A stretch of DNA of 44,635 nucleotides from Promethearchaeota archaeon (GCA_004524535.1 SDNY01000014.1:1-44635), one strand, 5' to 3'. Shown: positions 9,250 through 37,615, counted from the stretch's first letter. Program-made: numbers and translations. Notes: generated from the letters alone by a model not told the origin.

Positions 9250-10605
9250 TTATTCTTCAGGGGGTTGCCTTTGAAAATCATCTTTACAATTCCCACATTT
9301 GCATTTCCAATCCTCGGGCAAGTCTTTATATAATAAATCTTGTTTTGCCTCATCATAAACATATCCACATCCTTCACATTTCCATTTATATATGCCAACA
9401 GCCTTGCGTAGCTCATCTTCTTGAATCTCCGAATCCATATTCTTGTTAACATATGGGATGGCCTTTTTTTCCCCAAATAAGATTGCTCCTTTAAGTTTAT
9501 TATCTTTAAGGATAATTTTTTTATAACAATTCCCTTTCTTATCTACAGCTTTCAGAATTTCCCATCCTGCTCCTACTTGATCAATATCTTCGGGATCGAA
9601 CACTCCTACTGAAGTTAAATCGATTCCAACTATCTTAAGTGTATTTTTTGGTACAGTACCATGATATTCTATAGTTTTCTTACCAAGCACTGAAGCGGCA
9701 ATTATTTTAGATTGTTCTATACATGCGGGAATAATACCCCAAGTTTGATTATTAAATTCAATGCAGTCGCCAATAGCATAAACATCCTCTACACTTGTCT
9801 CTAAATATTTATTTACTATAATTCCTCGATTAGTTTCCAATCCTGCCTGTCTTGCTAAGTCTAGGGTTGCTCTAATTCCAGCTTGAATCAACACTATTTC
9901 TGCCTCAAATTCACGTCCATCTTTTAATTTAATTCCTTTTACTTTCTCGTCTCCAAGAATCTCTTCTGTAGCGGCGCTAAGAACAACCTTAATTCCCATA
10001 TCCTCAATAACTTTTTCTAACATTCCTCCGCAATCGACATCTAGTTGTCTTGGTAAGAGCCTCGGGAAAAACTCCACAACAGTAGTGTCTAATCCACAAT
10101 TTTTTATCTGTTTAGCAAGTTCAAGACCTAATAAACCGCCTCCAATAATGATCGCTTTTGAAACCTTATTTTTATCGATATATTCTTTTATTTCTAAAGC
10201 ATTATCAATATTTCTTAATGTAAAAACTCCTTTACCAATCATTTCATTTGCATTCTTAATTTGAGGAATATTTGGCATGCTACCTGTTGCGATAATTAAT
10301 TTATCATACTCAATCGGCTCACTCTCTCCCTCAAAGAACACATGCTTATGTTCAGGATGAATTCTGTTTATTTTCTTACCTAAAGTGGTCTTTATATTCT
10401 TCGTGTTATACCATTCTTGTTTAAATACAATCAGATCCTCAATAGTTACTTGCTCAGAAATCAATTCCGGAAGTTTAATTCGGGTATAATAGAGATATTT
10501 TTCAAGAGAATATATCTCGATCTCCGCCTCTTTATCAAGCATGCGAATGTTTTGAGCCGAAAAAGTTCCCGCCACATTATTTCCTATAATTACAACTTTC
10601 ATCAT
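9250..10605 (-). CDS. FAD-dependent NAD(P)H oxidoreductase (NirB/NROR family) with C-terminal rubredoxin domain
   Basis: VVIIGNNVAG, IIATGS, IIGGGLLGLE and YAIGD motifs; C-terminal WKCEGCGYVYD...LPEDWKCKCG. Confidence 0.9.
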   Translation of the reverse strand: MMKVVIIGNNVAGTFSAQNIRMLDKEAEIEIYSLEKYLYYTRIKLPELISEQVTIEDLIVFKQEWYNTKNIKTTLGKKINRIHPEHKHVFFEGESEPIEYDKLIIATGSMPNIPQIKNANEMIGKGVFTLRNIDNALEIKEYIDKNKVSKAIIIGGGLLGLELAKQIKNCGLDTTVVEFFPRLLPRQLDVDCGGMLEKVIEDMGIKVVLSAATEEILGDEKVKGIKLKDGREFEAEIVLIQAGIRATLDLARQAGLETNRGIIVNKYLETSVEDVYAIGDCIEFNNQTWGIIPACIEQSKIIAASVLGKKTIEYHGTVPKNTLKIVGIDLTSVGVFDPEDIDQVGAGWEILKAVDKKGNCYKKIILKDNKLKGAILFGEKKAIPYVNKNMDSEIQEDELRKAVGIYKWKCEGCGYVYDEAKQDLLYKDLPEDWKCKCGNCKDDFQRQPPEE

Positions 10606-10654
10606 TTTTTAATGGTTTTTTTAATATTTTAAAGTTTTTATTATAAGTTCTAAA

Positions 10655-10670
10655 TTTGAACATGTTCGAA
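10655..10670. promoter_or_regulatory. Palindromic operator TTTGAACATGTTCGAA
   Basis: Perfect core GAACATGTTC at 10658-10667 between the divergent oxidoreductase and cooS-like genes; the same core recurs at 14581 and 15022. Confidence 0.75.
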
Positions 10671-10776
10671 TAAGGTTTTAAAATAGATATAAAATATATG
10701 CTATTTAGTTTATAAGAACTATATTTATAAACTTAGTTTTCCTAAAGAATTAAAACAAATAAAGGTTTGAAGAAAA

Positions 10777-12681
10777 ATGGAAGGAGAAAGAATTTCATAT
10801 CATAAATCGGTACAAAAAGTCTATGAACGTATAAAAAAAGATGGTATGATTAATATCTGGGATCGGTTTGAAGCTCAAGGATTTGGTGGTGATCCTGATA
10901 AAAGATGTCCATTCTGCTTGAAGGGTGCTAGATGTGATTTATGCTCTAATGGTCCTTGTCGAGCAGATGTATCTATTGATAAGCGAGGGGTCTGTGGAAT
11001 CACAGCGGATGGTATGGCTATGCGGATGATGCTTCTAAGAAACGTAATGGGTACTTCCACATATCATTATCACACAGAAACTACACTAAAAACGTTAAAA
11101 GCGACAATTGAAGGAAAAACTCCGTTTAAAATCAGTGAACCGCAAAAATTAAAAAGTTTTGCAAATCGATTAGGGTTAGATACTTCTGGTTCGGATAATG
11201 ATATTGCTTTAAGATTATATAATGCTGTTAAGGAAGATTTCAATAGACCTTTTGATGAGCCCAGCAAGATTGTTGAAGCTTTAGCACCTAAAGAAAGACA
11301 GGAGGTATGGAAAAAAATTAGAATTTATCCTGGCGGTCTTTATGGTGAAATGATGTTCTCTACAAGTTCATGTTTGACGAATGTAGATGGATACTATGCA
11401 AGCTTAGCCTTAAAAGCAATGCGATTAGGAATCGCTATGGCATATCAAAGTCAAATTGTCAATGAATTTATTCAAGATATTCTTTTTAATGTTCCAAGAC
11501 CTCATAAAATGCGGGTAAATCTTGGTGTATTGGATCCTGATTATGTTAATATTATACCCAATGGACATGAACCGTTCCTTGGATTTGCAATGGTTCAATT
11601 GGCAAGAAAGCCTGAATGGCAAGAGAAAGCGAAAGCGGTTGGTGCTAAAGGCCTTCGAATTATCGCTAATATTGAAACTGGACAGGAAATGATTCAGAGA
11701 TGGGAGATGGACGATGTTTTCTATGGTTTTACGGGAAATTGGATAATGCAAGAAGCAGTTCTTGCAAGCGGATGTATTGATGCATTTGTATGCGATATGA
11801 ATTGTTCAATGCCAATCGATCCACTTTATGCTGAAAAATACAAGTTCAAATTAATTCCCGTATCAGAAGTGGTTGCCTTTGAAGGAATTGATGAAAGACT
11901 TGATTATATCCCTGAAAAAGCAGAAGAACAAGCAGCAACATTGCTTCAAATGGCAATTGATAATTTTAAAGATCGCCATGCAAGCATAGAACCTGTAATA
12001 GGATTAGATATGAATGAGGCTGTAGTTGGCTTTTCTACGGAAAGTATCGTTGAAGCATTAGGTGGATCCTTAACACCTCTTCTTGACGCAATAAAAGATG
12101 GTACTATAAGAGGCGTTGCGGGACTTGTTTCTTGTACAAGTCTTAGAGATAAGGGTCAAGATGTACATACTGTTGCTGTAGCTAAAGAATTAATTAAAAG
12201 AGATGTCTTGGTGCTGTCTATGGGATGTGGAAATGGGGGAGTACAAGTCGCAGGATTATGTTCTCCAGAAGCAAAAGATTTAGCAGGACCTGGTCTCAAG
12301 GCTCTTTGCGAAAAATTGGGCACACCTCCAGTCCTAAGTTATGGAACATGTACGGATACAGGACGGGTGGCTGATCTCATTGCCGCTGTTTCAGATGCAC
12401 TTGGAGGTGTTCCAATCCCTGATTTGCCTGTTGTTGCTGTCGCACCAGAATATATGGAGCAAAAAGCAACTATTGATGCGATTTTTGCCCTCGCGTTTGG
12501 ACTTTACACCTATGTGAATCCTGTTCCTACGGTTACAGGAGGACCAGATTTAGTCAAATTATTAACTGTTGACTGTAAAGATGTTACTGGTGGAATATTA
12601 CATGTTGAAACTGATACGATTCAAGCTGTTGATGCAATGTTAGAACACATTGAAGCAAATCGTAAGAAGTTGGGATTATGA
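10777..12681 (+). CDS. cooS: CO dehydrogenase (CooS)/HCP superfamily protein, CooS-V-like atypical active site
   Basis: CPFC D-cluster motif; B-cluster CDLCSNGPC...VCG; NGHEP, IETGQE, VSCTS, MGCG, YGTCTD and EQKA at the C-cluster-equivalent positions. Confidence 0.88.
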   Translation: MEGERISYHKSVQKVYERIKKDGMINIWDRFEAQGFGGDPDKRCPFCLKGARCDLCSNGPCRADVSIDKRGVCGITADGMAMRMMLLRNVMGTSTYHYHTETTLKTLKATIEGKTPFKISEPQKLKSFANRLGLDTSGSDNDIALRLYNAVKEDFNRPFDEPSKIVEALAPKERQEVWKKIRIYPGGLYGEMMFSTSSCLTNVDGYYASLALKAMRLGIAMAYQSQIVNEFIQDILFNVPRPHKMRVNLGVLDPDYVNIIPNGHEPFLGFAMVQLARKPEWQEKAKAVGAKGLRIIANIETGQEMIQRWEMDDVFYGFTGNWIMQEAVLASGCIDAFVCDMNCSMPIDPLYAEKYKFKLIPVSEVVAFEGIDERLDYIPEKAEEQAATLLQMAIDNFKDRHASIEPVIGLDMNEAVVGFSTESIVEALGGSLTPLLDAIKDGTIRGVAGLVSCTSLRDKGQDVHTVAVAKELIKRDVLVLSMGCGNGGVQVAGLCSPEAKDLAGPGLKALCEKLGTPPVLSYGTCTDTGRVADLIAAVSDALGGVPIPDLPVVAVAPEYMEQKATIDAIFALAFGLYTYVNPVPTVTGGPDLVKLLTVDCKDVTGGILHVETDTIQAVDAMLEHIEANRKKLGL

Positions 12682-17894: not shown

Positions 17895-18185
17895 AATCAA
17901 CCTCCTTAATTTTCTAAGAAAAATATGAGTTACAATGATAAATACTTACCTATTTAGATTTATTGATCAAACAGAATAAGAGATTAAAAATATTAGAAAT
18001 TCTCTTTTTTCTTATAATAAAATATAAACAATATTTGCTGTTATTTGTTTAAGCCTTATTTAATTCAGATTAAAAAATATTAATTCTTTCAAGAGATCTA
18101 TTTTAGATTTAATTGAAATTCTCAACAAAATCTATAAAATATAAACAATAAGTTATAATGGCTAAAGTCTCTAATATTACTCAAT

Positions 18186-18647
18186 ATGGATTATAAAACT
18201 CAAAATAAAGAATATGAAACTGCCATACAAACTCTATTACGAGGGCAATCTTGGAATGAGAGGGCAGATGCAGCAAGACAATTAGGGAAATTTCAAGACG
18301 CAAGAGCAACTAATATTTTAGCTAGAGCTTTAAATTCAGAAAAAGATGAAATTGTTATCAATCAAATTATTGAAGCGATGGGCAAAATAAAGGATGCTAA
18401 GGCTACAATGCTAATCATTGATTTTTTAAAGAAAGAATTAGAACTCCCAGAAGAAAAACAAAATAAGAATAGATTGTTTTTAATTATAGAAAGTTTGATG
18501 AAGATTGGAGACAAAAGAGCCCTAGAACATTTAGGTGTATTATTTAATTCTTGCTATACTGATATTAGAGAATTAACTGAACAAGCCTTTCAATGTATTG
18601 ATCCTAATTGGAAGGAAAATCTCAAAAATATAAAGAATAATAAATAA
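18186..18647 (+). CDS. HEAT/PBS-lyase repeat protein
   Basis: Repeats RADAARQLGKFQDARA, IIEAMGKIKDAKA and IIESLMKIGDKRA. Confidence 0.82.
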   Translation: MDYKTQNKEYETAIQTLLRGQSWNERADAARQLGKFQDARATNILARALNSEKDEIVINQIIEAMGKIKDAKATMLIIDFLKKELELPEEKQNKNRLFLIIESLMKIGDKRALEHLGVLFNSCYTDIRELTEQAFQCIDPNWKENLKNIKNNK

Positions 18648-18693
18648 TTGTATTAATTAAAAATAAGAAATCTCAAAAAAAGGATAAAAGCAA

Positions 18694-19011
18694 ATGTCGG
18701 ATAAAGAGTTAATTGCAACCTTAAATACGAAAGTAGAGGGCGAGAATAAGTCAAAAGATATCCAAATTTTCACGCTCTCAACTTGCATGTGGTGTAAGAA
18801 AACAAAGCGTTACTTAAACGATAATGATGTAGAATATAGTTACATTGATATGGATAAGATTCAATATGCTCAAAAGAAGCAAATTTTAGATTTTCTTAAG
18901 GCAACATATAAGGAAAGAATATCCTATCCATTTCTCATTTGTGATGGTAAGGCTATAGTGGGATATAATCCTGAAAAATATGATAAAATGCTAAAATCTG
19001 GAGCTGATTAA
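18694..19011 (+). CDS. Glutaredoxin/NrdH-like redoxin
   Basis: TLSTCMWCKKTK...SYP...IVGY. Confidence 0.88.
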   Translation: MSDKELIATLNTKVEGENKSKDIQIFTLSTCMWCKKTKRYLNDNDVEYSYIDMDKIQYAQKKQILDFLKATYKERISYPFLICDGKAIVGYNPEKYDKMLKSGAD

Positions 19012-23927: not shown

Positions 23928-24779
23928 TTACAGAAGTTTTGGGACATCCCAAGGCAAATCTGCAATAAGAGCTCCAGCATCCTTAAGTGCTTTTATCTTC
24001 CCTTGAGCAGTTCCAAAACTGCCTGATGATATAATTGCACCAGCATGACCCATCCTTTTACCCTCCGGAGCACTTTTTCCAGCAATATAAGCTATGACTG
24101 GTTTAGAGACGTGATCTTTTATATATTCGGCAGTTTTTTCTTCCTCATTACTTCCAATTTCGCCTATAAGAACGATTTTTTTAGTATTAGAATCATTAGA
24201 ATAATACTCTACAGCTTCAACCATCGTTTTTCCTCGTACAGAATCTCCCCCAATACCAATATAAGCAGATACTCCAATTCCTGCATTTCCTATAGCTTTT
24301 GTAATTTCATAAGAAAGTGTTCCACTTTTAGATATAACTGCAACATTCCCATAATGACACATATCACTCGGCATAATACCTAATTTGATTTTATCAGGAA
24401 TCATCATACCAGGGCAATTAGGGCCGACAATGTCTAGTTTCCCTTCATGAGCGATTTCCAGGAGTTTTATCATATCCAAAACAGGCACATTTTCTGTGAT
24501 AATACAAACTAATTTTATTCCGGCATATAAACTTTCTTTAGTAGCTTCAAATGCAAATCTAGCAGGAACGAACATAATACTTATATCGCAACCTGTTTCA
24601 TCAACAGCATCTTTCACACTATTAAATACTGGAACACCATGTATTTTTTGTCCCCCTTTTTTTGGCACAACACCCGCCACGATGTTAGTTCCATAATCTA
24701 ACATCAATTTTGTATGGAATGCCCCTTGGTTTCCAGTTATACCTTGAACAAGCACTTTTGAGTTTTCACTGATATTCAT
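23928..24779 (-). CDS. sucD: Succinyl-CoA ligase alpha subunit
   Basis: VQGITG, GPNCPG, SKSGTLSYE and phospho-His motif RMGHAGA. Confidence 0.96.
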   Translation of the reverse strand: MNISENSKVLVQGITGNQGAFHTKLMLDYGTNIVAGVVPKKGGQKIHGVPVFNSVKDAVDETGCDISIMFVPARFAFEATKESLYAGIKLVCIITENVPVLDMIKLLEIAHEGKLDIVGPNCPGMMIPDKIKLGIMPSDMCHYGNVAVISKSGTLSYEITKAIGNAGIGVSAYIGIGGDSVRGKTMVEAVEYYSNDSNTKKIVLIGEIGSNEEEKTAEYIKDHVSKPVIAYIAGKSAPEGKRMGHAGAIISSGSFGTAQGKIKALKDAGALIADLPWDVPKLL

Positions 24780-25901
24780 TTAAGCTAAGACCTCCTTTAC
24801 CTTATTTACAGCGTCCATAACATCTTTAAAAACATTAATTCCTTCATTTTTTAAAAGTTCGATCCCTTCAGCTTCATTAGTCCCAATCAACCGGATTACT
24901 ATTGGAGGTGCTTCAGTAAAATCCTTTAGAGCTTGAATTATAGCTTCTGCGACAATATCACAACGAGTAATTCCCCCAAAAATATTAATAAGCACACATC
25001 GTGGTTTTAATTTAAAAATTAAATCAAGAGCTTTATAAACCCTCTCTTTGCTTGCGCCACCTCCAACATCTAAAAAATTTGCGGGTTTTAAATCTAATTG
25101 AGACAGAACATCTAACAATGCCATAGTCAAACCCGCGCCATTAGCTAAAATTCCAATATCACCATCCAATTCTACAAAGGAAAATCCTGCTTCTACTGCA
25201 ATTTTTTCAAAGTCAGATAATTTTTTATCGAGGTAGTTTTGGATTATTGGCTGTCTAAATGCCGCATTATCATCAAGTATCATCTTACCATCAACAGCAA
25301 TTAAACCCTTAGGAGTTAATACAAGGGGATTTATCTCAACTAAGTGTGCTTCTATCTTTACTGTAATGTCCCATAATTTTTGAAATATTTTAATTGCCGA
25401 TTCTAAGAGATCTCCTGAAAAACCAATTTTCTCCCCAACTTCTTTAGCGATTTCATTTGTCAATCCTTCTTTATAAGAGAAATTGCTTTTAATAATTGCT
25501 TCGGGATTATTCTTAGCAACATCTTCTATATCTATCCCGCCTTCTTTACTAGCGATTAAGTAAAACTTTCTTTCAGAGGCGTCTAAAGCTATTGAACAAT
25601 AATATTCTTGCTCAATATCGGCTAATTCCTCAATTAAAATTGCTTCAACATTGAATCCCGCAACAACTCGTTTGAAATACTCTTTACATAAGAAAATTGC
25701 CTCTTCTTTAGTTCGGACAATTTTTATTAAGCCTGCTTTCTTCCTACTTCCAATAGCAATCTGAGATTTAACAATTGCTGGGAAAGAGAACTGATTTACT
25801 TTCTCACTAATATTATCGTTTTTATTAATAAGTATGCTATTTGCAAGTGGAATTCCAAACTTTCGAAACACATCCTTACTTTCATATTCAAGTAATCGAA
25901 T
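24780..25901 (-). CDS. sucC: Succinyl-CoA ligase beta subunit, apparent ATT start
   Basis: VKSQ...GSRKKAG, EINPL, NGAGL, PANFLDVGGG and NIFGGITRCD. The frame extends upstream of the track's GTG as (I)RLLEYESKDVF to the ATT at 25901, with AGGAG upstream. Confidence 0.95.
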   Translation of the reverse strand: MRLLEYESKDVFRKFGIPLANSILINKNDNISEKVNQFSFPAIVKSQIAIGSRKKAGLIKIVRTKEEAIFLCKEYFKRVVAGFNVEAILIEELADIEQEYYCSIALDASERKFYLIASKEGGIDIEDVAKNNPEAIIKSNFSYKEGLTNEIAKEVGEKIGFSGDLLESAIKIFQKLWDITVKIEAHLVEINPLVLTPKGLIAVDGKMILDDNAAFRQPIIQNYLDKKLSDFEKIAVEAGFSFVELDGDIGILANGAGLTMALLDVLSQLDLKPANFLDVGGGASKERVYKALDLIFKLKPRCVLINIFGGITRCDIVAEAIIQALKDFTEAPPIVIRLIGTNEAEGIELLKNEGINVFKDVMDAVNKVKEVLA

Positions 25902-26088
25902 ATTTAACGTCTCCTAAATTGAATTAAATATTTAATTTTATGTTCTAACATATAATTAAAATTCATTGAATTATATATTTCTAATAGATTATAATTGCCA
26001 CATCTTAAATAATAAATGACTTATTGAAACATAAATTAATATAGATTAAAAAAATTAAAGATAAATTTTTGTAAAGGTTTTCATTGAA

Positions 26089-36221: not shown

Positions 36222-36911
36222 ATGTCTTATATTAAACAGCATGAAGATATTTTAAAAAATGAGATGGCAAAGTTAAAAAATGAGGTTCATATAATAGTTT
36301 TCACTGATGTTAAAGAACAAAATGGAGAGAAAGTAAGAAGATGCATGTCTTGTGATGGTACTATGAACCTATTAGAGCAACTTTCGGAGTTCTCAAATGG
36401 TAAATTGATGATAGAAGAGAAATCTATAGATATTGATGTAGATGAGGCAAAAAAATATAATGTTACAAGAATACCAACGATTCTATTCATTGATCAAGAA
36501 GAAAAAGAAGTTATTAGATATTTGGGAAATCCACTTGGTGCTGAAACAGCTCCATTTATTCAGAATCTAATATATTTCTCAGGTGTGAGAAGTTTTTATG
36601 AGGATGCAATCATAATGAATTTAAAGAATATGCAAAAATCAACATTAAAACTTTTTATAACCTTAACTTGTCCCTACTGTCCAAGTGTCGTACCAATTTC
36701 TGGTTTATTCGCAATATTATCTAGAGGGAAAATAAAGACCGAAATAATTGATGTTGATGTAAATCAAGACCTTGCAATGAAGTATCAAGTTCAAGGGGTA
36801 CCCCATGTTATGATTAATGAAGACCAACATATTTATGGTGTTTTTTCTCCTCAAGATTTATTAGATAAAATTACGAGGGGAAAATTAGATTTAGGAGGCA
36901 TGTATGCTTAA
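36222..36911 (+). CDS. Protein disulfide oxidoreductase (two thioredoxin folds)
   Basis: CMSC and TCPYCP motifs; RIPT and GVPH cis-Pro loops. Confidence 0.88.
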   Translation: MSYIKQHEDILKNEMAKLKNEVHIIVFTDVKEQNGEKVRRCMSCDGTMNLLEQLSEFSNGKLMIEEKSIDIDVDEAKKYNVTRIPTILFIDQEEKEVIRYLGNPLGAETAPFIQNLIYFSGVRSFYEDAIIMNLKNMQKSTLKLFITLTCPYCPSVVPISGLFAILSRGKIKTEIIDVDVNQDLAMKYQVQGVPHVMINEDQHIYGVFSPQDLLDKITRGKLDLGGMYA

Positions 36912-36931
36912 GAATTTACGAGGTGATTGAA

Positions 36932-37615
36932 ATTTCGTCTCAAGATCGATATAAACAAATAATTAAACGTGAAATGGCTAAATTAAAAAAAGCCGTGAAA
37001 TTAAAAGTAGTTACATGTAAAGCACGGCAACCAAACGGAAGTCAGATAAGAGAGTGTATGGATTGTGGACAATTTATGTCACTATTAAACGTTTATGAAG
37101 AGTATTCAAATGGAATGCTGAAGATTGAAGAATTATGCATAGAAGATAATCCAGAACTCGCAAAAAGATATGATATTTCTCGTGTGCCAACTATTCTTTT
37201 TTTAGATGATAACGGAAAGGAGCTAATACGATATCTCGCAGCCCCACAAGGTGGGGAAATCCAACCATTCATTCAAGCTGTTTTTGCTTTAGCAGGAGCA
37301 GGTAATTATTATGAAGCAACAATAAAACAAAATCTTGACAGAATCCCACCTTCCACGATAAAAGTTATGATAACAAACACGTGTCCATATTGCCCCCAGG
37401 TAGTTTCCGTTGCTAATCTATTTGCTCTTGCAAGTAATGGAAAAATTAGAACAGTAATCATTGATATAATGGTAAATCAAGATATTGGTCAATATTATGA
37501 TGCCGCTGGAGTACCACATACAATAATTAACGAAAAGCCAGCAATTTCAGGAATGGTTGGACCAAATGAAATTTTAAAAGCTTTAATAGGGGGAAATATT
37601 CGTGTTCAATATTGA
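36932..37615 (+). CDS. Protein disulfide oxidoreductase paralogue, apparent ATT start
   Basis: CMDC and TCPYCP motifs. The track's GTG (36923) lies inside the RBS GAGGTGA; the ATT at 36932 aligns with Met1 of the upstream paralogue. Confidence 0.86.
   Translation: MSSQDRYKQIIKREMAKLKKAVKLKVVTCKARQPNGSQIRECMDCGQFMSLLNVYEEYSNGMLKIEELCIEDNPELAKRYDISRVPTILFLDDNGKELIRYLAAPQGGEIQPFIQAVFALAGAGNYYEATIKQNLDRIPPSTIKVMITNTCPYCPQVVSVANLFALASNGKIRTVIIDIMVNQDIGQYYDAAGVPHTIINEKPAISGMVGPNEILKALIGGNIRVQY

Follow-up and report, generated by a model that had tools for sequence, protein, structure and literature searches.

Results

An ATT codon at the conserved N terminus of SucC

The DNA analyzed here (the window, 44,635 nucleotides [nt] at its full length; Promethearchaeota archaeon, GCA_004524535.1, SDNY01000014.1:1-44635) is contig C39 of a 3.66-Mb, 198-contig, 99%-complete metagenome-assembled draft genome (G000) of a Loki-type Asgard archaeon with a guanine-plus-cytosine (GC) content of 30%. 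It carries sucC, the gene for the beta subunit of succinate--CoA ligase, and the subject of this report is the codon from which sucC is translated, apparently an ATT (Table 1). Read on the minus strand, the start region is TAG GAG ACG TTA AAT ATT CGA TTA CTT GAA TAT GAA AGT AAG GAT GTG TTT. An earlier note on this DNA had described this sequence, with an AGGAG Shine-Dalgarno (SD) motif 9 nt before the ATT and a stop five codons upstream, and each of these details proved to be exact. Between the upstream in-frame TAG and codon 11 of sucC there is no ATG, GTG, or TTG, and the listing of open reading frames (ORFs) places the start at the GTG (24780..25871, 363 amino acids). Translated from the ATT, the protein is IRLLEYESKDVF.

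The two possible forms of the protein differ in how well they match the family. Against NCBIfam NF001913/TIGR01016, the SucC equivalog with a cut-off of 370 bits, the form that starts at the ATT scores 377.0 bits and passes, whereas the form that starts at the GTG scores 362.5 bits and fails. The Pfam domain ATP-grasp_2 (PF08442) matches residues 3 to 194 of the ATT form over profile positions 2 to 201 of 202 with 172.2 bits; the match of the GTG form begins only at profile position 10 with 158 bits, so that positions 2 to 9 and 14 bits are gained by starting at the ATT. Ligase_CoA (PF00549) follows ATP-grasp_2 at residues 253 to 369, the domain order expected for SucC. The earlier note had stated that a GTG start would delete a conserved motif, and the GTG form indeed loses profile positions 1 to 10 and its place above the NCBIfam cut-off. 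In alignments with proteins of known structure, residue 2 falls on residue 2 of 3ufx_B, 6mgg_B, 1jkj_B, 1cqi_B, and 1jll_B, the five best sequences, and RLLEYESK (the query from residue 2) lies over NLHEYQAK of 3ufx_B and 6mgg_B with x-L-x-E-Y-x-x-K in register. Because residue 2 aligns to residue 2 of these solved SCS-beta chains, the ATT occupies the position of Met-1. The ORF is intact and conserved, and the partner gene sucD adjoins it downstream (NCBIfam NF004230, 372 bits versus a cut-off of 336; 23931-24779, minus strand).

Table 1. Features of the sucC locus, in window coordinates
Feature	Position	Strand	Remarks
sucC, ADP-forming succinate--CoA ligase beta subunit	24780..25901	-	373 codons plus TAA (24782-24780), counted from the ATT
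ATT, inferred start codon (near-cognate AUU)	25899..25901	-	Aligns with Met-1 of solved SucC proteins
AGGAG SD motif	25911..25915	-	9-nt spacer, from the last G to the A of ATT
In-frame TAG, overlapping the SD motif	25914..25916	-	Frame closed at the fifth codon upstream of ATT
GTG, start by ORF rules; codon 11 (Val) of SucC	25869..25871	-	Canonical start codon here in 1 of 21 orthologues
AT-rich intergenic region between divergent sucC and icd	25902..26088	.	Contains the sucC leader and predicted promoter
sucD, succinate--CoA ligase alpha subunit	23928..24779	-	ATG immediately after the sucC stop
SD motif of sucD, AAGGAGGT, within the 3' end of sucC	24790..24797	-	Junction sequence

Base calls and start codons in sucC orthologues

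A miscalled base at 25899 had been named as a way in which the ATT could be spurious. Contigs of three other, independent studies (X2 record 5, X5 record 13, and X6 record 23) span 25899-25901 with no difference listed and agree on the ATT. The X2 contig carries a strain variant, 25870 A>T on the plus strand, that abolishes the GTG. The loose ends of relatives' contigs carry CCTCC or CCCTCC, the complement of an SD motif, just past the ATT.

Two sets of close sucC orthologues, 21 sequences altogether, were compared at the aligned first codon. Among the 11 relatives with 59 to 100% identity, which include the gene of the window itself, this codon is ATT in seven, TTG in two, GTG in one, and ATG in one; the 10 members of the second set (66 to 72% identity) have ATT in four, ATA in five, and ATG in one. 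All 21 close Asgard orthologues thus have a start-like codon at this position (ATT 11, ATA 5, ATG 2, TTG 2, GTG 1). In a distant set of bacterial and archaeal sucC loci, of which 66 of 70 were countable (one lay at a contig edge and three aligned only beyond residue 3), we found ATG 56 times, TTG five times, GTG five times, and ATT or ATA not at all. The contrast with the 16 of 21 close orthologues that have ATT or ATA exceeds chance. The comparison with sister genomes that the earlier note had proposed showed that ATT or ATA is retained at the aligned codon, often with a stop zero or one codon upstream: in L002 a TAA stands immediately before the ATT, and in L003, L004, L026, L031, and L034 the stop is one codon further off.

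Over codons 2 to 9, pairwise differences among the 21 orthologues amount to 781 synonymous and 60 non-synonymous ones, and by this measure purifying selection acts strongly on the segment between the ATT and the GTG. Only one of the 21, that of this genome, has a canonical start codon at position 11. With codons 2 to 10 conserved in the protein and no ATG, GTG, or TTG before codon 11, the claim that the conserved N terminus of SucC can be made only from the ATT is supported. A quick maximum-likelihood tree places the 21 orthologues in one clade (Shimodaira-Hasegawa-like approximate likelihood ratio test, 98), most inner branches of which are open. ATT is dispersed over this clade, early branches included, with at least nine changes of start-codon label; the tree serves only to bound the number and order of these changes. 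The third base of the start codon varies about as much as neighboring synonymous sites.

SD pairing and the initiator tRNA

The 3' end of the 16S rRNA of this genome reads ...GGATCACCTCCTAATAA, and the SD motif of sucC is predicted to pair with this tail at -7.0 kcal/mol. The predicted values for the 16 ATT or ATA orthologues range from -6.1 to -16.0 kcal/mol, against -0.3 and -4.8 kcal/mol for the two ATG orthologues. In an upstream alignment of six orthologues from the genus and family, the GG.G core of the motif is invariant. Genome-wide, the median pairing is -2.7 kcal/mol for ATG starts (n = 92), -3.8 for TTG (n = 13), and -5.3 for GTG (n = 5). For the ATT, ATA, and ATC starts that pass the strict criteria described below (n = 9), the median is -7.3 kcal/mol (Mann-Whitney P = 0.015 versus ATG), and for five further cases picked by eye it is -6.8 kcal/mol (P = 0.0066 versus ATG); internal ATT and ATA codons (n = 298) have a median of -3.2 kcal/mol (P = 0.007 versus the strict starts).

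Contig C174 contains an initiator-type anticodon arm that has CAT and three G:C pairs. No tRNA-like initiator arm with another anticodon was seen in the tRNA set, which was only partly recovered. The initiator tRNA itself (C174, minus strand, script coordinate about 17010) seems to bear an intron directly after the anticodon stem, and the finding of 9 to 15 tRNAs in a 99%-complete genome suggests that many tRNAs of this organism contain introns or are split.

ATT and ATA starts across the genome

Stop-to-stop ORFs were compared with 1.0 Mb of a sister genome of the same genus, which yielded 525 best pairs. Discarding 143 of these as antisense shadow ORFs, which had inflated the first comparison, left 382 pairs, and in 49 of them the first canonical start comes 5 or more codons after the beginning of homology. 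The strict criteria demanded a test codon no more than 2 codons from the homology start that lay 5 or more codons ahead of any canonical start, stood opposite a start-like codon, and had at least 50% identity in between. ATT, ATA, or ATC passed in 9 of 382 pairs in this genome, compared with 0, 0, 0, 1, and 0 for five control codon sets; in the sister genome, 7 passed, with control values of 3, 1, 0, 1, and 2. When five cases that fail only on a gap, an offset, or identity are added to the clean ones, the count is about 11 of 382.

The codons that lie opposite 155 confident ATG starts of the sister genome are ATG (109), TTG (10), ATT (7), ATA (3), GTG (3), ATC (1), and AAG (1), with ACG and CTG absent. 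Five of the 11 ATT, ATA, and ATC codons among them have a canonical start at most 4 codons downstream and three have a GTG or ATG 3 to 6 codons upstream; three are unambiguous.

A test that does not depend on relatives considered codons at least 5 positions upstream of the first canonical start in non-shadow ORFs and scored SD pairing by duplex energy, taking -8 kcal/mol or lower as strong. Strong SD motifs precede 92 of 2587 ATT, ATA, and ATC codons versus 283 of 15194 other codons (odds ratio, 1.94; P = 2.5e-7). The excess, about 44 sites, compares with 222 canonical starts that have a strong SD. The enrichment was replicated in sister genome G001 (19 of 605 versus 54 of 3577; P = 0.010). 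Only about 8 to 9% of first ATG codons in the genome of the window are preceded by an SD motif. From these comparisons, about 2 to 3% of the genes compared with the sister genome would use ATT or ATA starts, with much stronger SD pairing than ATG starts. The wider pattern of ATT starts to which the earlier note had assigned sucC is thus real on a genome-wide scale, as judged from orthologue pairs, SD energies, strong-SD enrichment, and replication in G001.

Examples of genes with ATT, ATA, or ATC starts include those for HisA, a ThiF/E1-like enzyme, an 84-residue ubiquitin-like protein, an ArsR regulator, a P-type ATPase, and a Roadblock/LC7 protein. Position 1 of the ubiquitin-like gene is ATT or ATA in 9 of 30 loci, among them all seven of the genus, and aligns to ATG elsewhere. 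In these nine loci the next canonical codon lies 10 to 76 codons inside the gene; in this genome there is none until codon 76. On contig C84 (loci L160 and L161), the ATT-start ubiquitin-like gene (25466-25720, plus strand) is located 6.6 kb from the ATT-start ThiF/E1-like gene (18132-18872, plus strand). Within the window, the ATT at 36932 of a protein disulfide oxidoreductase gene (TIGR02187; ORF 36869..37615, plus strand) stands opposite the ATG of the sister genome. Three codons before this ATT, the SD motif GAGGTGAT (window 36920-36934) contains a GTG, and the start of the gene is ambiguous between GTG and ATT.

The start of the aIF1 gene

The gene for aIF1 was examined for a possible reason why weak starts are tolerated. 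The single aIF1 (SUI1) gene (G000 C174, about 10556-10879, plus strand; L206:1417-1740) reads ...AAGGTTGTGA AAA GAG ACA ATC AAA GAC GAA GAC ATT TGT CCA ATA TGT and has no ATG, GTG, or TTG before its N-terminal zinc knuckle. A canonical start before the knuckle is missing in 16 of 18 family genomes, and in the other two there is a GTG inside the SD-like element. All 18 have ATT, ATC, or ATA 6 or 7 codons before the knuckle. With the ATC as its first codon, the protein scores 111.5 bits against NCBIfam NF002096 (cut-off, 98), and the match begins at profile position 2. Most likely, to judge from these alignments, aIF1 starts at ATC here, and at ATT in most relatives, behind the conserved AAGGTTGTGA, whose TGA is the in-frame stop.

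In the sister family, aIF1 starts with TTG, GTG, or ATG, or with ATA in two genomes. A wider sample of the phylum, in which 23 of 30 loci could be parsed, gave ATG in 14, GTG in two, TTG in one, and no canonical start in six; four of these six have AGGAGG followed by ATA. The aIF1 loci L240 and L243 (family f6) have neither ATG, GTG, or TTG nor a well-placed ATT or ATA before the knuckle, the best candidate being a CTG 7 nt after GGAAGGTG.

Neighborhood of sucC

The neighbors of sucC are sucD, a TfrB-like gene, icd, fumC, and the gene for aconitase, and the neighborhood is a tricarboxylic acid cycle cluster. Before the sucC SD motif (window 25921-25950, minus strand), this genome shares an AT-rich block, AACATAnAAATTnnATATTTAATT, with the same-genus loci L002 and L004; the block might serve the divergent sucC and icd genes as a promoter or be bound by a regulator. 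An Rfam scan of the window matched no family.

Discussion

We consider it highly probable, on comparative grounds, that this archaeon has an intact and functional sucC that is translated from the AUU at 25901-25899 under the guidance of an SD motif, and that this start is part of a lineage-wide habit. In the mechanism that we propose, the SD motif would pair with the 3' tail of the 16S rRNA (GAUCACCUCCU) and set the AUU in the P site, where the ordinary initiator Met-tRNA (CAU) would decode it with a mismatch at the third position. SucC would then begin Met-Arg-Leu-Leu-Glu-Tyr. The strong SD would offset the weak AUU codon, and through its AUU start sucC would depend on how stringently aIF1 selects start codons.

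Several observations weigh against this interpretation. AT-rich, TATA-like blocks lie 20 to 35 nt upstream of the ATT, near the SD motif, in G001 and G004, and given their location a very short sucC leader is possible; the placing of a transcription start from such blocks was dropped as unreliable in intergenic DNA of 30% GC. The partner gene sucD has an ATG and the perfect SD motif AAGGAGGT (window 24777-24797, minus strand), whereas sucC has an ATT; with a very inefficient AUU, initiation rates would differ between the two subunits and their amounts would be unequal. Codon 3 is TTG in 5 of the 16 ATT or ATA orthologues (L027, L028, L030, L032, and L034), where a canonical start two codons in is possible; in four of these five an ATC also precedes the ATA, and L033 has an in-frame TTG and GTG within the SD motif, upstream of its ATA. 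At the genome level, three of the nine strict matches (C98, C59, and C181), all with weak SDs, were judged doubtful on other grounds. Tests with exact SD 5-mers before in-frame codons that precede the first canonical start gave no clear enrichment for ATT (3.0% versus 2.9% for internal codons; under stricter conditions, 2.5% versus 2.2%), but these still included shadow ORFs and were superseded by the duplex-energy tests on non-shadow ORFs. Finally, the tRNA set is partial, with 9 tRNAs found by Aragorn, 12 when introns were allowed, and 15 by the Rfam tRNA model.

In bacteria, starts of this kind are known from individual genes; pcnB of E. coli, for instance, starts at AUU. So does E. coli infC, which encodes IF3, is SD led, and is controlled at this AUU by IF3 itself (PMC4705826), and ATT is also the start of ebpA in Enterococcus faecalis (PMC4447247). 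Like infC, sucC has its AUU at a conserved N terminus with an SD motif upstream and no canonical start available, and by analogy the AUU would be expected to be read by the initiator tRNA and to be sensitive to a fidelity factor. Unlike in the case of infC, the archaeal fidelity factor is aIF1, the homologue of eIF1, rather than IF3, and for sucC, a metabolic gene, no autoregulatory logic is known. Autoregulation of the infC type accordingly does not fit sucC, which encodes a metabolic enzyme; the gene of this genome to which it would apply is that for aIF1. A further difference is one of scale, as AUU-type starts would concern some 2 to 3% of genes here and not a handful as in bacteria.

For archaea, a review of initiation lists AUG, GUG, and UUG in all types of mRNA and does not mention AUU (PMC7531240); our findings would add AUU, AUA, and AUC as working starts in this lineage. 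The same source describes SD-led and SD-less archaeal mRNAs as coexisting and the SD as 'not prevalent' in the sequenced Lokiarchaeon, which the sparse SDs of the present genome resemble. In ribosome profiling of Haloferax, about 30% of the putative alternative sites were at near-cognate codons and were set aside (PMC7261190). An ATT start, called 'rare', was inferred for the tubulin AtubA in a metagenome-assembled genome of the Kariarchaeaceae, a Heimdall-type Asgard group (PMC13394414). Unlike that of sucC, this case concerns a single gene of a different Asgard class and is argued from a fold model without comparative, SD-energy, or genome-wide analysis. AtubA was also the only archaeal ATT start that we found in the literature, and the search, with subscription journals and supplements outside its reach, returned neither a systematic report of ATT or ATA starts in Asgard or other archaea nor an aIF1 gene with a near-cognate start or autoregulation.

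What maintains the ATT is a separate issue. Most likely, from the orthologue comparison, it is a state that is tolerated because the SD compensates for it and that AT mutation pressure favors, and not a switch specific to sucC: the clade uses five different codons at this start, and SDs are stronger where the codon is weaker. Alternatively, the ATT may be kept by selection as a regulatory device, in which sucC and other ATT or ATA genes are tuned by the level of an aIF1 that itself starts at AUU or AUC. Such a start-stringency circuit would be analogous to those of IF3/infC in bacteria and eIF1 in eukaryotes. It gains from the occurrence of ATT in 11 of 21 orthologues across the clade, early branches included, from the 16 of 18 family genomes in which aIF1 lacks a canonical start and shares a conserved AAGGTTGTGA-type SD, from the near-cognate aIF1 starts in other Asgard families (6 of 23 parsed loci), and from the rejection of AUU by aIF1 in vitro (PMC4705826). 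Against it, the sucC start flips among ATT, ATA, ATG, TTG, and GTG at least nine times on the quick tree, with a third base about as variable as its synonymous neighbors, and an SD strength that appears to offset codon weakness fits drift under stabilizing selection on the total initiation rate. We regard regulation by design as a serious possibility that is nonetheless rather unlikely.

For aIF1 itself, a self-limiting feedback loop like that of bacterial infC is plausible, since IF3 governs its own AUU start and 30S complexes of Sulfolobus accept an AUU model mRNA when aIF1 is absent but not when it is present (PMC4705826). As in the autoregulation of IF3, the aIF1 of this genome and its family would start at AUC or AUU, the class of codon that aIF1 rejects in vitro according to that source. 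One might speculate further, although we think the idea will probably prove wrong, that the SD-led AUU and AUA genes (those for SucC, the ubiquitin-like protein and its E1-like partner, HisA, Roadblock/LC7, and others) co-vary with aIF1 activity as an archaeal counterpart, and possible forerunner, of near-cognate control based on eIF1. In eukaryotes, eIF1 reportedly autoregulates through an AUG in poor context, as described by Ivanov et al. in 2010.

Initiation at the ATT might be real and yet independent of the SD, through a leaderless mRNA or very short leader, a second initiator tRNA, or a modified C34 that reads AUA and AUU. Modification of C34 widens decoding to AUA and AUU in mitochondria. 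The TATA-like blocks in G001 and G004, the scarcity of SDs before first ATG codons, and the incomplete tRNA inventory would all be compatible with this. On the other hand, the ATT and ATA starts are specifically tied to strong SD pairing, and the sole initiator-type arm among the tRNA-like sequences has CAT, which makes SD-independent initiation improbable. More improbable still is translation from the GTG (25871-25869), with SucC lacking its first ten residues and the upstream stretch serving as an untranslated leader. The GTG is the first canonical codon in frame and the choice of standard gene callers, but codons 2 to 9 are under the constraint described above, codon 11 is non-canonical in 20 of the 21 orthologues, and a strain variant alters the GTG. 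Moreover, no SD precedes the GTG, the AGGAG being placed for the ATT, the shortened form drops below the family cut-off, and solved structures begin at aligned residue 1. An assembly or sequencing error that turned an ATG into the ATT, or a fresh pseudogene without a start, can be virtually discounted despite the draft, metagenome-assembled state of the genome (198 contigs), given the identical bases in contigs of three independent studies, the ATT or ATA at the aligned codon in 15 other orthologues from different species, and an intact, conserved ORF with sucD directly downstream.

If sucC is translated from its AUU, as we favor, annotation is affected. Gene callers restricted to ATG, GTG, and TTG shorten such genes or miss them. 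Under these rules SucC loses a conserved strand and scores below a curated family cut-off, and the ubiquitin-like gene is missed entirely. The published Asgard tubulin AtubA required the same manual correction of its start. Since Asgard proteins are heavily mined for eukaryote-like features, systematic errors at their N termini matter.

In conclusion, near-cognate starts led by an SD are known from bacteria, and what appears to be new is a conserved, percent-level habit in an archaeal lineage that includes aIF1. The use of AUU and AUA starts at the percent level, tied to strong SD pairing, would be without precedent in archaea, and so would an aIF1, the proofreading factor, that has a near-cognate start of its own. 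With the two combined, it would become directly testable how the control of start-codon stringency evolved between archaea and eukaryotes.

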